Shown: positions 7,929 to 61,623 of the stretch, piece by piece
Layout: each line of letters starts with the position of its first letter
Position numbering within the stretch: the first letter of the stretch is position 1
Assembly (NCBI GenBank): GCA_018303625.1
Contig: JAGVXV010000016.1
Location: forward strand, 7,317-71,316
Origin: Candidatus Woesearchaeota archaeon
GTDB lineage: Archaea > Nanobdellota > Nanobdellia > Woesearchaeales > GW2011-AR4
Reading direction: 5' to 3'
DNA length: 64,000 nucleotides
Notes under the pieces: generated by a model
What the model was told of the DNA's origin: nothing
The model's database searches: none
What the model saw: only the letters and a program-made list of their open reading frames with translations
Position numbers and translations under genes: made by a program

Positions 7929-8097
7929 GCTCCCGTGGTGTAGCCCGGCAGCCTTTTTGGCTGGGCAAACAATCATTCGGCCCTCTCGTGTGGCAAACCA
8001 TAAATCGCTTTGCGATTTAAAATCACTGAAGAAAGGCCGAGACCCGAGTTCAAAGAAGCTAAAAGCTATTTTAGCATTGGAAGTCTCGGCGGGAGCA
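7929..8097 (+). tRNA. tRNA-Glu(CUC) with three insertions (D-loop, anticodon 37/38, T-loop)
   Basis: GCTCCCG-TG-GTGTAGCCCGG[~21 nt]CAATCAT-T-CGGCC-CTCTCG[45-nt intron 7989-8033]A-GGCCG-AGAC-CCGAG-TTCAA[~27 nt]AGT-CTCGG-CGGGAGC-A; Glu/Asp-type D-arm; followed by T7. Confidence 0.6.
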
Positions 8098-12835: not shown

Positions 12836-12940
12836 TGGACCGGCCGGGATTTGAATTTCCGAATCACAAGTTTTTACTTGCAATTTCCCGGAGTCTTTCC
12901 CTAGCCAAGGGAACACGATACCAGATTTCGCCACCGGCCC
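12836..12940 (-). tRNA. tRNA-Ala(GGC) with G3:U70 and a ~31-nt insertion between T-stem and T-loop
   Basis: rc reads GGGCCGG-TG-GCGA-AATCTGGTA-TCGT-G-TTCCC-TTGGCTA-GGGAA-AGACT-CCGGG[aaattgcaagtaaaaacttgtgattcggaaa]TTCAAAT-CCCGG-CCGGTCC-A; U37 is unusual. Confidence 0.55.
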
Positions 12941-13028
12941 ATTAAAAGCAGTGAGAAAAATAACAATATAAAATACTTTTCATTAAAATACTAACTCATT
13001 AATAAAAATCAAAGGGGAGGGAAGGTTT

Positions 13029-13121
13029 ATGTTTGCACTTTCTGGAAATGTTATGCCCTCCACCCACCCGTTAAGATTAAGCAAGAAAGTGCAGATATCA
13101 TATTATATTGCGAGCCAATGA
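13029..13121 (+). CDS. Mini-ORF c3 (30 codons) of the SD/PxHPL hairpin-element family
   Basis: AAAGGGGAGGGAAGG 4 nt upstream of ATG; MFALSGNVMPSTHPLRLSKKVQISYYIASQ; C-rich tract CCCTCCACCCACCC can pair with the G-rich SD tract. Confidence 0.25.
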   Translation: MFALSGNVMPSTHPLRLSKKVQISYYIASQ

Positions 13122-13176
13122 GCGAGCCTAGAATACGCCGTAGGCATATTAAATTTTAAGAAGGATTATTTAATTT

Positions 13177-13389
13177 TTACTTTGCAGCCAGCTTAACATC
13201 CCCTTCATGGACGGTTACCCTTCCTGAATGCTTGGCTATCTGAGATGCCTTGTTCGCTATCTGCAGGGCTTTCTCGGTAAGAATTTCGGTAAAAGCGCTC
13301 ACAGCGCCTGAAGAAACCCTTTTAGCGCCAGCGTTGAGCAGAATCCTGCCTACAGGCGCTTTAGGAATTATGCTTGTTTTTCTGCCCAT
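13177..13389 (-). CDS. Archaeal histone (HMf-like histone fold)
   Basis: 70 aa; PKAPVGRIL...AGAKRVS...HSGRVTV..DVKLA matches archaeal histone A/B. Confidence 0.85.
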   Translation of the reverse strand: MGRKTSIIPKAPVGRILLNAGAKRVSSGAVSAFTEILTEKALQIANKASQIAKHSGRVTVHEGDVKLAAK

Positions 13390-30076: not shown

Positions 30077-30142
30077 AGAGGAAAATTGTTATTTTGATTA
30101 AAAATTAAATAAAAACAAAAAATAAAATAATTTAGAATAAAA

Positions 30143-30175
30143 ACAACCAATAACTAAGATTCAGAAAAACAATAA
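30143..30175 (+). promoter_or_regulatory. Repeated AT-rich spacer element ACAACCAATAACTAARATTCARAAAA (copy 1, upstream of moxR)
   Basis: Near-identical 33-nt copy at 31429-31461 upstream of the DUF58 gene. Confidence 0.4.
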
Positions 30176-30278
30176 ATAAAAATAATCAATGAAATTAAAT
30201 AAAATAATAAAGATTAATAAAAGGGATTATGATTACAAGCGAAAAAATTAAAAATAATGCTTAAAGAGGTGAACATTC

Positions 30279-31214: not shown

Positions 31215-31428
31215 AAGAAGCCGGTTCAATTAACTGCGCGACTGAATTCAAGGGATTAAAGGCGCCTTAACTTAGTGATTTACCGCGTTATTTATTTTTA
31301 TTAAAATTTAATTCAAAAAAATAATAAAAACAAAAAATAACACAACCAAGTACGCAAATAATTGTTATTGTGTTTGTGCCCATAATGTTAAAATCGAATC
31401 ATTGAAAAATAAAACCACAAAAATAAAG

Positions 31429-31461
31429 ACAACCAATAACTAAAATTCAAAAAATCAATAA
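31429..31461 (+). promoter_or_regulatory. Repeated AT-rich spacer element (copy 2, upstream of DUF58 gene)
   Basis: ACAACCAATAACTAAAATTCAAAAAATCAATAA vs copy 1. Confidence 0.4.
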
Positions 31462-31503
31462 CGAACAAAAAATAAAAATTACTTAAAAAAATATCAATAA
31501 AAA

Positions 31504-33380: not shown

Positions 33381-33625
33381 TTATTTTGATTTTGTCAAAA
33401 ACCACCTGTCAAAGACAGGTGGCATGATTGGGTTATCAAAAGTATATGTGAGGTGGTTTTTGATGCTTGAAATTCCACGACTATGTATGTGTGGTTTTTG
33501 AGCACAATTCACTCCACTCATTTTTAATGAGCGGAATTTCATTGTTTAAATCAGTGTTTATTTATATTTTTTGATTTTAATTAATTTTTTGGATTTGACT
33601 TTTATAAAAATTAAGGGGGAATAGA

Positions 33626-33715
33626 TTGCTCCTTGCTCTTTACCACTCCCCTAGGTTCCCCACCCCCTTGCGTTTATTTAAGCAAAGGAGTATTATTTCG
33701 CCTGCAAAAGCTTAA
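33626..33715 (+). CDS. Mini-ORF c1 (TTG start, 29 codons) of the SD/PxHPL hairpin-element family
   Basis: AAGGGGGAATAG tract then TTG; LLLALYHSPRFPTPLRLFKQ...; C-tract TTCCCCACCCCC pairs with the G-tract. Confidence 0.2.
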   Translation: MLLALYHSPRFPTPLRLFKQRSIISPAKA

Positions 33716-33912
33716 TATAATAGAGGCTCTATATATAACAATAATAGCCAACTAAGGCAAAACCAGAGGAAATATATGTTGCAATATATATTTTTCAATG
33801 ACTAAAAGAACCGTAAGCTTTAAATACCATTTGTTGCCTATTAGTTGGTTAGATACTAACCTCTATAGGTTAGTTGCACGATATTTAAAAAAAACTATGA
33901 GGTGTTAAGAAA

Positions 33913-36385
33913 ATGAGATTTCAAAAAGCAATTAAGAAGATTATGGCTCTAGGTACAGGAGCAACAATGATGGGTGCTACTTTAATGGGAGCATTCGCGG
34001 CTGCTGACCTGGCTAATTACCCTGCGCCATTTATTAAAGACGGCAAATTCAACGGTGTTCTGGTCGTAGGCGACAAAGCTGCTGCAGAAGATGTTATCGG
34101 CGTTTCTGATATAGCTATAAGCATGCAGTTTGCTGCAACAAAGGAGAAGCCTGGAAAGTAGGAACATCAACAAAGATTCTGGAAATAAGCGAAAATTTGG
34201 AGAGTGGCAATGCAAACCAAGAGTCAATATCAAACATAACGTCTAATTCATTTATAGATGACACAGAATTGCCGACTCTATTAGCCACATTAACAGCAAC
34301 AAACGGTAAAGGAGATTCTCCATATGATCAAAGACTGTATTTTGAAGACTCGAGCAGCGGTTATGTTAAACTGCTTGAAGATGACAATGATGTAACAGCA
34401 GATTTCCTGTATTTTCCAAACAGCAGGCAGATTGCAAGATATGAGTTGGAATTTACAACTTCTCTTGAATCAGATGTAGATGACAGCGCTGGAGCTGCAT
34501 CAACTACGGGCCTATACCTGACAGACATTGAAGATGCAGACCTTACAATGCTAGGAAAACCTTACACGGTTGTGCAAGCAAGAAGATTAACTACATCAGG
34601 CGGAGGTGTCAAATTAATTTTAATGGGAGGCTCTGTAAAAGACACCTTGGTTGAAGGAAACACAAAGACGTACACAATTGGCGGAAAAGACTATGAAGTT
34701 ACGTCAAACTTTGTAGATGCAAACAGCGCTAAGTTCACAATAAACGGAGAAGGAACAAGGGATTTGCTTGACGGAGAAACTGACAAGATATCTGATGGAA
34801 CCACATTAGGTGTTTCAGCACTGATGTAGAGAATACTGGAAGCAGTAACGAATTAAAGGTAGATGATGAAACAATTGATGGTGCGAATGTAGCTATCGAA
34901 GCTACTGATGACAATAGTACATTTAAGCTTGATAAGATTAAAATCAACATGACTGCAGATGATGACTATTGGGTGCCTGCAGGAGGAAAATTAACAGAGA
35001 GTCCTGATTTAAAAGAGCCAGAGTTGATTTTTACGAAAGGATGGGACATTGAATATAGAGGGCTTAGCAAAGAATTGACACAAGAGATCAATATTAAAAC
35101 AAGCGGCTCAGACGATTATGACTTAGAGTTTGTTGATGGAAAGGGAAATAAGGCAAAAATCCCTGTCCTACATACGTCAGGAGGAGCTGTTACTAAAATG
35201 GGAGATAACGACGATGACTTGATAGTGCAGGAAAACGTAACTATAACCAAGAATGACTACTTTGTTATAACTGATTACACTGATAAAAGTGGTGAAAGAC
35301 AGAGTTTTGCCTTGAGATACAAGGGAGCTGATAAGTTAACATCCACTGACCCAAAAATCAAGTTTGAGGATTTGGGAAGTGGAGAGACAATTGAGAGAAC
35401 CCTTAGCGCAGGCACTGCAATTGCGGCAGGCGTGATAGAAGCTGCAGCTGAAGTGGCCCAAATTAAAATAGGCGGAGGGACATATAAAGTGTACAACGTC
35501 TCAGCAGGCACGGCAAATGACTTCAACATAATGGTTGATTTGGACGCATCTGGAGGTCTTTCAGGCACAGATAAGCTTGGTGTGGGCAATGTATATGGTA
35601 AAGATATTGGTATAAACACTAAGTATGGTGCAAATATATCAATAGACAACTCTACCACAGGTGGTGTGGTTATAATGATTGACACACCAAACACTGATGA
35701 CTTTGATGACTTGGCTCCAAATCAATTGGAGTGGAACCTTTCTGCTGCAAGCGGAGAAGTAGCATTAGGATTAACAGGTCCTCAGGTACATTCGTTCCTT
35801 ACACCAGAAGGAGACGATAAAAACCAGTACGCATATACCTCTTATGGGGCGTATGTAAAGCAGTACAAGCCAACAAATGACCCGAATGAAGTGTTCATTG
35901 AGTACCCACAGGAGCAGAGAGTGCCTTTGGTTTACATTGTATCAAAAGGAGTGACATTTACAGAGACTGGAGCAACAAGCGGAGATGCTGTTACACTTCA
36001 AAAGATTGAAGTTGGAGCAACAAAGCTTGCATCTGAAGTCTCAAATGTCAAGGCTGTAAACTCAATCCTTGTTGGAGGGCCTTGTGCTAACGCAGCTGCT
36101 GCAACCGTATTAGGAAATCCTGCTGACTGTGCTGCTGGATTCGAGCCAGGAGTAGGCAGGGTTGAATTGTACGAAAACGACGGCAATGTTGCAATGCTTA
36201 TAGCAGGCTACAGCGCATTAGACACAAGAAATGCAGCGCAGGTTGTTGCCAACTACAAGGATTACAAGAGCCAGTTAAAAGGAACTGCTGTTGAGGTCAA
36301 GAAAGTCAACAACCAGTTGACAGTGGCAGAGTCCTCAAAGAAAGCTGGCATGATGGAAGAGGCAGCTGAAGAGACAACAGCTTAA
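33913..36385 (+). pseudogene. S-layer-domain protein gene split over three frames (ORFs 33913-34161, 34197-34829, 34949-36385)
   Basis: N-terminal signal/TM plus NYPAPFIKDGKFNGVLVVGDKAAAEDVIGVSDIAISMQF and C-terminal VGGPCANAAAATVLGNPADCAAG...GYSALDTRNAAQVVANYKDY both parallel the 45834-49700 paralog (S_layer_N/C-like); frame changes near 34155-34200 (poly-A run) and 34800-34950. Confidence 0.5.
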
Positions 36386-38274: not shown

Positions 38275-38350
38275 AGTATTTTTTTGATAAATTTTTATTT
38301 GTTTTTTATTGAATTTTTAATGAAAATAAACTTAAGGGGGAATAGGTTTA

Positions 38351-38437
38351 TTGTTTGCTCTTGATTCTTTTTATAATGTTCCCCACCCCCTTCTGATTAT
38401 GCCAGTTAAGGAGAACTTAAATGGCAGACTTGCTTAA
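38351..38437 (+). CDS. Mini-ORF c2 (TTG start, 28 codons) of the SD/PxHPL hairpin-element family
   Basis: AAGGGGGAATAGG tract then TTG; LFALDSFYNVPHPLLIMPVKENLNGRLA; the 3' end overlaps the MITE-TIR-like motif. Confidence 0.2.
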   Translation: MFALDSFYNVPHPLLIMPVKENLNGRLA

Positions 38438-38446
38438 GTTGACAAT
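38423..38446 (+). repeat. Solo copy of the TIR-like motif GGCAGACTTGCTTAAGTTGACAAT
   Basis: Matches the right terminal inverted repeat of the 39591-39752 MITE-like element (GGCGCACTTACTTAAGTTGACAAT). Confidence 0.45.
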
Positions 38447-38512
38447 TATATTGCACAGTAAAAAAGGAAATTATATAAATATAACTCCTATTTGCATATT
38501 AAGGGGTGGAAA

Positions 38513-61468: not shown

Positions 61469-61616
61469 GCTCCCGTGGTGTAGTCCGGTCTGAAGAAAGT
61501 CCATCACATGATGGTTGTTCTTTCGGGATAACCAATCATTTCGGATTTTCGATCCGAAGACCTGGGTTCAAAGAAGATAAGGTCCATCCTGACTTTAGAA
61601 AGTCCCGGCGGGAGCA
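61469..61616 (+). tRNA. tRNA-Glu(UUC) with ~43-nt D-loop insertion and ~27-nt T-loop insertion
   Basis: GCTCCCG-TG-GTGTAGTCCGGTC[tgaagaaag...ataacc]AATCAT-T-TCGGA-TTTTCGA-TCCGA-AGAC-CTGGG-TTCAA[..]AGT-CCCGG-CGGGAGC-A, then T7. Confidence 0.6.
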
Positions 61617-61623
61617 TTTTTTT
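61617..61623 (+). terminator. Oligo-T terminator after tRNA-Glu(UUC)
   Basis: ttttttt directly after discriminator A. Confidence 0.45.

Follow-up and report, generated by a model that had tools for sequence, protein, structure and literature searches.

What are the three short, mutually similar stretches that recur on one strand of a 64,000-nucleotide piece of DNA from a Candidatus Woesearchaeota archaeon (the whole of this piece is called the window below)? Each combines a purine tract, an ATG or TTG and a C tract, and a reading made from the sequence alone had left three answers: mini-genes of 29-30 codons led by Shine-Dalgarno (SD) sequences, leader or attenuator elements of downstream genes, or a structured small RNA whose coding-like conservation is incidental. 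A comparison of the copies, their pairing potential, their reading frames and the sites at which they lie favours the last of these answers: the elements would form a non-coding family of structured RNAs, restricted to one lineage and divided into the paralogous types A and B, a reading to which we assign a probability of roughly 0.55. The window is archaeal, carrying a 16S rRNA gene and intron-bearing tRNA genes, and its Gins51 protein is 100% identical to proteins from groundwater metagenome contigs, with relatives named Woesearchaeota or Nanoarchaeia.

All three reported copies (c1, c2 and c3) are present, all on the plus strand, and are made up as follows:

12999-13103, plus strand: whole c3 unit, type B, with an A/T-rich box (TTAATAAAAAT), core and tail
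13011-13025, plus strand: c3 purine tract AAAGGGGAGGGAAGG, followed by the ATG at 13029 and the C tract CCCTCCACCCACCC at 13056-13069
13029-13121, plus strand: c3 open reading frame (ORF), 30 amino acids
33563-33722, plus strand: whole c1 unit, type A, with an AT-rich 5' flank, core and 3' part
33613-33624, plus strand: c1 G tract AAGGGGGAATAG, followed by the TTG at 33626 and the C tract TTCCCCACCCCCTT at 33656-33669
38277-38450, plus strand: whole c2 unit, type A, from the local alignment with c1; a segment of about 175 bp that is missing in relatives
38334-38345, plus strand: c2 G tract AAGGGGGAATAG, followed by the TTG at 38351 and the C tract TTCCCCACCCCCTT at 38379-38392

The G tract, a (T)TGC(T/A)CTT box and the C tract are common to the three copies on the same strand and far exceed chance expectation: scans of the window gave three matches to TTGCNCTTN{10,24}CCACCC with 0.01 expected and three matches to AAGGGGN{12,30}TTGCNCTT with 0.15 expected. 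Two dimensions of the original description needed adjustment. The C tract, placed about 30 nt downstream, lies 31-33 nt past the end of the purine tract, and the copy length of about 105 nt is too short, as homology between c1 and c2 runs over about 160-175 nt (local alignment of 33563-33722 with 38277-38450, score 90 compared with 31 ± 4.5 for shuffles). Covariance model R1 recovered c1 at 33613-33703 (74.5 bits), c2 at 38334-38426 (79.2 bits) and c3 at 13013-13103 (76.7 bits) in the window, and an nhmmer profile of type B matches c3 at 13014-13095 with E = 1e-24. The three copies are indeed all related, as proposed, but c3 is a diverged paralogue of type B and not a further copy of the same type as c1 and c2.

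Further copies do exist. A metagenome pattern scan together with protein look-ups enlarged the family to 13 distinct members, eight of type A (c1, c2 and six others) and five of type B (c3 and four others). In the metagenome scan, true copies were confined to the AT-rich contigs L061, L081, L093, L094 and L108, the remaining matches being GC-rich chance hits; L087 and L099 are c1 itself and were not counted as separate members. Look-ups with ORFs spanning the element added L119-L122 (identical to L093) and L123/L124. Type A copies are laid out as AAGGGGGAATAG - 8 nt - TTGCTCTT - 15/16 nt - GTTCCCCACCCCCTTG..., and type B copies as AAGGGAGGGAAG - 8 nt - (T/A/G)TGCACTT - 15/16 nt - GCCCTCCACCCACCC.... 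An A and a B copy are convergent neighbours in L061, L093, L094 and L123, their tails 2-3 nt apart, and such a pair forms an imperfect inverted repeat about 175 bp long; in the window the A and B units lie 20-25 kb apart on the same strand. Among the A copies, the blocks of 12, 8 and 15 nt are invariant save for two changes in L123A, where G replaces an A of the G-tract block and C replaces a T of the box, while the intervening spacers vary freely, that of L081A being A-rich where the other A copies are T-rich. GTTCCCCACCCCCTT is identical in all eight A copies and ACCCACCC in all five B copies. The invariance of whole blocks beside freely varying spacers points to function rather than decay.

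The distribution of the family is narrow. Searches of the window and of some 290 kb from relatives by nhmmer and covariance model gave no further copies, L113-L118 (57-60% Gins51 identity) yielded none by either method, and the viral contigs that were scanned contained none. A scan of a genome collection with the three-block pattern gave 40 hits, judged to be chance matches from their titles alone, nearly all of which name bacterial metagenome-assembled genomes. In Rfam 15, no family reaches its gathering threshold at the three sites or in the relatives' copies, even among matches with E up to 1-10, and the literature search found nothing relevant to the element. The family is so far restricted to a few related groundwater Woesearchaeota populations. 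One B copy carries a 50-nt GC-rich insertion, AACGGAAAATTAAAAATTTTCCTAGTTGCGCTCGGCTACGCCTCGGCAAC, inside its C tract (L094, positions 2029-2078), which contains two hairpins and of which blastn found no other copy. A bulge-helix-bulge intron was considered for this insertion and dropped, as the motif could not be drawn by hand on either strand; the copy is either disrupted or the carrier of a small unknown insert.

The conserved blocks are explained by two complementarities, both of which are kept across the family with compensatory change. The first, S1, joins the G arm to the 5' half of the C tract in 6 bp that are unbroken in 13 of 13 members, and RNAalifold, given seven A and four B sequences, returned this pairing of G arm and C arm as its single stem. 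The arms are GGGGAA/TTCCCC in type A and GGAGGG/CCCTCC in type B, three of the six pairs being changed on both sides. The pairing of G tract and C tract suspected in the sequence-only reading is thus kept through three double substitutions between the types, whereas the purine tract, taken there for an SD-like site, is better read as one helix arm. The second complementarity, S2, supports and extends the earlier suggestion of a structured small RNA. It joins the loop box (T)TGC(T/A)CTT to an AAAG(A/T)G motif 23-24 nt past the C arm and measures 5-10 bp across all members. CTCTT pairs with AAGAG in type A and CACTT with AAGTG in type B, so that a T-to-A switch in the box is matched by an A-to-T switch in the tail (box W5/tail W5' pair: U-A in eight copies, A-U in five). 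The helices map to the window as follows:

13016-13021, plus strand: c3, 5' arm of S1, GGAGGG; partner 13056-13061 (CCCTCC)
13033-13041, plus strand: c3 box TTGCACTT(T), 5' strand of S2; partner 13086-13094 (AAAGTGCAG), with eight Watson-Crick pairs and one U.G
13062-13085, plus strand: c3 conserved C-rich linker ACCCACCCGTTAAGATTAAG..., from the identity of the B copies
33616-33621, plus strand: c1, 5' arm of S1, GGGGAA; partner 33656-33661 (TTCCCC), from RNAalifold
33633-33641, plus strand: c1 box TTGCTCTT(T), 5' strand of S2; partner 33685-33692 (AAGGAGTA), from the register test
33656-33661, plus strand: c1, 3' arm of S1, TTCCCC, followed by the C-rich linker ACCCCCTTGCG... at 33662-33684
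38337-38342, plus strand: c2, 5' arm of S1, GGGGAA; partner 38379-38384 (TTCCCC)
38355-38362, plus strand: c2 box TTGCTCTT, 5' strand of S2; partner 38409-38413 (AGGAG; one U.G wobble)

The structure was scored on the very sequences from which it had been derived. In a register test of S2, 82 of 99 cells were paired at shift 0 compared with 31-54 at other shifts. In alignment A8, where an N keeps the register of five copies with a linker shortened by one base, S1 and S2 together have 88.8% of their cells paired (S1 100%, S2 82%) compared with 39-60% for slid partners, and their covariation score of 0.317, compared with a maximum of 0.159 when slid, was reached by none of 500 shuffles. Four pairs are changed on both sides in 20 cells (shuffles 8.5 ± 2.0, none of 500 reaching the observed value), and as all four track the single split between A and B, the compensatory changes amount to about one evolutionary event. 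The spacing of helices and linker is fixed at 11-12, 15-16 and 23-24 nt. S1 and S2 interleave, and if both form, the arrangement is that of an H-type pseudoknot. Single-sequence folding energies are no better than those of shuffles (z = +0.7, -0.07 and -1.0), which is expected for a pseudoknot with long loops. Two known classes were considered on reading the 13 sequences and set aside: box C/D or H/ACA guide RNAs, for which no such boxes are present, the stem being followed by ACC, and split tRNAs, whose defining boxes are absent.

The peptide side of the original description fares differently. The quoted mini-ORF peptides are correct translations, and the P-x-(T)HPL core is encoded by the C tract as described, but its conservation is partly an artefact of poly-C: TTCCCCACCCCC is read TTC-CCC-ACC-CCC in c1 and (G)TT-CCC-CAC-CCC in c2, the frames differing because box and C tract are separated by 15 nt in some copies and by 16 nt in others. 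Reading frames are not maintained across the copies. In the frame first proposed, four of the seven A copies then known (L061A, L081A, L093A and L108A) have no ATG, GTG or TTG between the upstream stop and the C tract. The only frame common to most A copies begins at the TTG of the box (TTG in seven of eight, CTG in L123A) and is broken by a 1-nt deletion in c1 and by an in-frame TAA at codon 5 in L081A, and type B copies start with ATG, GTG or no start codon at all, in two different frames relative to the box. The variable columns are distributed 3/3/4 over the codon positions (our own count on the listed copies), and the third positions of CCC-ACC-CCC are invariant despite the AT-rich genome. 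The substitutions, which the sequence-only reading had proposed to examine for the preservation of peptide or pairing, preserve the pairing through compensatory changes and show no codon periodicity that would speak for a peptide.

That the elements are genes for small proteins of 20-40 codons, possibly leaderless, with products such as (M)LLFISFxMFPTPLR... from type A and M..PSTHPLR... from type B, is accordingly something we consider quite improbable. It would account for the open frame from the box TTG that is common to five A copies, for the ATG or GTG of B copies near the same place, for the agreement of A and B at matching places (Leu as TTG or TTA, Arg as CGN or AGA) and for TTAATAAA at -30 to -23 from the ATG of c3, the distance typical of leaderless genes in this genome; in addition, the c3 ORF is annotated as a gene in two public contigs (P0123). 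It has to contend with L093B, which lacks a start, with the 50-nt insertion in L094B, with the loss of PLR in L123B and L094B, with ORF lengths ranging from 4 to 40 codons and an unconserved C terminus, and with an invariant G tract that lies outside the ORF. A search with the B-frame peptide matched only three clusters, already known ORFs, among 5.8 billion. As the strand is pyrimidine-rich, open frames and apparently hydrophobic peptides arise by composition alone. Candidate peptides for a look at metaproteomes are MFALSGNVMPSTHPLR and LLFISF..FPTPLR, and we expect them to be absent.

The elements had also been read as cis-acting leaders or attenuators of the S-layer paralog and the GINS gene, in which the C tract would sequester the SD-like G tract. 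The tracts do pair, and c1 and c2 do lie upstream of these genes on the same strand, c1 between CorA (minus strand) and the S-layer-like gene (plus strand), c2 between a radical SAM gene (minus strand) and Gins51 (plus strand). With leader-peptide attenuators of the trp/his type and with SD-sequestering leaders the element further shares a short ORF-like stretch and a G-rich tract that a C-rich tract can sequester; in contrast to them it has no linked regulated gene and no conserved ORF, and the flanking genes have their own promoters. Whereas contigs of the same population contain c1 and c2 unchanged, the relatives L047, L048, L049, L051 and L053, whose neighbour proteins are 70-89% identical, have an element-free radical-SAM/Gins51 spacer of 63 bp. 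The Gins51 promoter region GTAAAAAAGGAAATTATATAAATATAACTC is retained in this short spacer; its counterpart in the window is found downstream of c2, so that the DNA around c2 is a gain of about 175 bp. Likewise, c1 is absent from the orthologous CorA/S-layer spacers of L047 and L049, and the S-layer promoter AAGCTTTAAATA and a conserved leader begin at about 33770, with c1 further upstream. The downstream genes therefore keep their promoters and 5' regions whether or not an element is present, and the element does not travel with its neighbour genes. Nor is there a co-directional downstream gene for c3, which lies between a tRNA gene (12836-12940, minus strand) and a histone gene (13177-13389, minus strand) and faces the 3' end of the latter, for L081A, which also faces the 3' end of a gene, or for the paired copies; finally, the neighbour genes are functionally unrelated. 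A leader function is thus very doubtful. The three mini-ORFs can be dropped as spurious, as can the mistaken link of an attenuator to the S-layer and GINS genes. Archaeal ORB replication-origin repeats, which the strings of G and the GINS neighbour had brought to mind, were also discarded: the 407-aa neighbour is a radical SAM protein and not Orc1, and the copies are dispersed and absent from relatives.

The same turnover gives weight to the main rival of a structured RNA, namely a non-autonomous mobile or repeated DNA element of the MITE, REP or REPIN kind, in which the hairpins would have their role in single-stranded DNA or in terminating transcription and the convergent A/B pair would be the complete element, with c1, c2 and c3 as solo halves. 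Bacterial REPINs and the Correia elements of Neisseria are examples of such intergenic hairpin repeats. They resemble the element in being short and intergenic, in their internal complementarity, in occurring singly or as inverted doublets and in being present or absent at orthologous sites in close relatives. Contig L061 (MoxR, DUF58 and CorA 84-87% identical) matches L047 and L049 in its closeness to the window organism and has an A/B pair between MoxR and DUF58. These two genes overlap in L047 and L049, which makes the pair in L061 an insertion, and a pair at a site that is empty in equally close relatives means that element sites turn over quickly. Occupied sites thus differ among close relatives (in L061 MoxR/DUF58, in the window both CorA/S-layer and radical-SAM/Gins51, in L047 and L049 none); the gain of c2 is a discrete segment of about 175 bp; A and B form inverted pairs about 175 bp long in L061, L093, L094 and L123; and the element has an A run on one side and is T-rich on the other like a bidirectional terminator, with T4-T7 in 13 of 13 members when read on the minus strand. 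Nevertheless, we consider a mobile element unlikely. A comparison of the filled c2 site in the window with the empty site in L047 reveals no clear target-site duplication or terminal inverted repeat, and no partner transposase was seen. The solo units are full cassettes and not truncated ends, the blocks are invariant across species while spacers are free, and it is not obvious what two interleaved helices, in place of one palindrome, would mean in duplex DNA. The copies are also few, three in the 64 kb of the window and none in some 290 kb from relatives, and the viral contigs that were scanned gave none.

The convergent pairs admit still another explanation, a sense/antisense module with overlapping 3' ends like the type I toxin-antitoxin loci, of which hok/Sok and TxpA/RatA are examples. 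Type A would then encode a short hydrophobic peptide with its SD and start locked by S1/S2. Such loci share with the element the convergent small transcription units and a fold-back that covers the SD and start codon of a very short hydrophobic ORF. In the pairs of L061, L093, L094 and L123 the tails meet within 2-3 nt, the A-frame peptide is hydrophobic, and S1/S2 cover the SD-like tract and the putative start codon. However, the copies do not keep the A ORF, A and B are related as paralogues with the same fold and not as an mRNA and its antisense, and in the window the partners are unlinked, lying 20-25 kb apart on the same strand. We consider this reading very improbable.

For the structured RNA, the transcribed strand is probably the plus strand, at odds of about 65:35 as judged from sequence features. 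Many genes in the window have a TTATAAAC/TTTAAATA-like box at exactly -30 to -23 from their ATG and no SD, which suggests leaderless mRNAs, and only about six of 39 long ORFs have a GGTG-type SD. TATA-like octamers, read by hand from the flanks, stand at the same distance (-30 to -23) from the G tract of the elements, L081A with TTTATATA and L094A with (G)TATAAAT being examples. The plus strand is also indicated by 11 G.U compared with 0-1 A.C at helix positions (the 11 wobbles are in S2, and L123A adds one G.U in S1) and by the paired loci, where no TATA box is suitably placed for a minus-strand transcript covering S2. The T runs conflict with the G.U signal and point to the minus strand: a run of T4-T7 directly follows the element on that strand in 13 of 13 members, while on the plus strand 12 of 13 members have no run of at least four T within 40 nt past the tail. 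In A/B pairs, the A run of each partner could terminate the read-through transcript of the other.

The unit would accordingly be a conserved core of about 90 nt within a self-contained cassette of about 170 nt, transcribed from its own promoter with a start just upstream of the G arm, most likely on the plus strand. Its RNA would fold through S1 and S2 into an H-type pseudoknot topology and leave the C-rich linker between the helices exposed (ACCCCCUUGCG in A, ACCCACCC... in B). We infer that this RNA acts in trans, because nothing links the neighbours of the various copies (CorA, S-layer, radical SAM, GINS, histone, tRNA, glyA, DEAD helicase, GluRS and thioredoxin). What the exposed linker does is a matter for speculation: tentatively, it may pair with G-rich targets such as GGUG/GGAGG ribosome-binding sites or bind a protein, and as the window contains no excess over shuffles of sequences complementary to the C tracts, pairing with ribosome-binding sites stays a guess. 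RsaE/RoxS (Rfam RF01820), a family of C-rich trans-acting small RNAs of Firmicutes, and the small RNAs of Methanosarcina that target ribosome-binding sites offer a parallel. As proposed for the element, these are short, independently encoded RNAs whose exposed C-rich single strands can base-pair with ribosome-binding sites rich in G, and like it they combine conserved blocks with variable spacers. Unlike RsaE/RoxS, the element is archaeal and has a pseudoknot topology, and the two have no homology in sequence or structure, the sole RsaE match in the Rfam scan scoring 17.3 bits compared with a gathering score of 79 (E = 2.8, opposite strand). A bolder and rather improbable version would make A and B paralogous pseudoknotted regulatory RNAs whose linkers mimic the anti-Shine-Dalgarno of 16S rRNA and titrate or mask the minority of SD-led mRNAs in a genome of mostly leaderless genes; if this were true, convergent A and B copies might also regulate each other through their 3' overlap. 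The regulatory and structural RNAs of the uncultivated DPANN archaea are almost entirely unexplored, and an unannotated family that matches nothing in Rfam and has a testable two-helix fold is something concrete to map in metatranscriptomes and to seek more widely with covariance models. Its value is moderate, as the family is narrow, coming so far from one habitat and lineage, and the structural evidence comes from 13 sequences.

Several further features lie around the three sites. The stretch between c3 and the histone stop codon (13111-13147) contains GCGAGCC..GCGAGCC as a direct repeat, together with the hairpin GCCTA(GAATACGCCG)TAGGC and, after it, AAATTTT; this may be a terminator common to the convergent units. 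The intron-bearing tRNA gene on the other side of c3 (12836-12940, minus strand) is divergent from c3 at a distance of 72 nt; it scored 36.5 bits in a local Rfam scan and was missed by the gathering scan of the whole window and by ARAGORN, which reported no tRNA in the window. Repeat family D19 and reading of the sequence revealed what look like two paralogous tRNA genes with several introns at 7931-8097 and 61470-61617 (both plus strand), neither of which was reported by Rfam. Their 5' end is GCTCCCGTGGTGTAG... and their 3' end ...GGTTCAAAG[insert]AAGTC(T/C)CGGCGGGAGCA, followed by T7.

Upstream of CorA, the interval 33395-33560 contains several features that the L047 spacer lacks: a perfect hairpin, CCACCTGTC-AAA-GACAGGTGG (33403-33423), a CTCATT/AATGAG hairpin and the repeat GTGGTTTTTGA, which occurs twice. 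Whereas the MoxR and DUF58 genes of relatives overlap, those of the window are separated by 290 bp (31215-31503) with a GC-rich stretch at 31220-31290, and A-rich direct repeats that are 84% identical flank MoxR (30136-30185, within the interval 30084-30220, and 31422-31471). The S-layer-like gene downstream of c1 (33913-36385) is split into three ORFs (33913-34161, 34197-34829 and 34949-36385), whereas otherwise near-identical contigs encode one S-layer protein of 863 aa (L041, 5282-7873), the differences starting at 34141.
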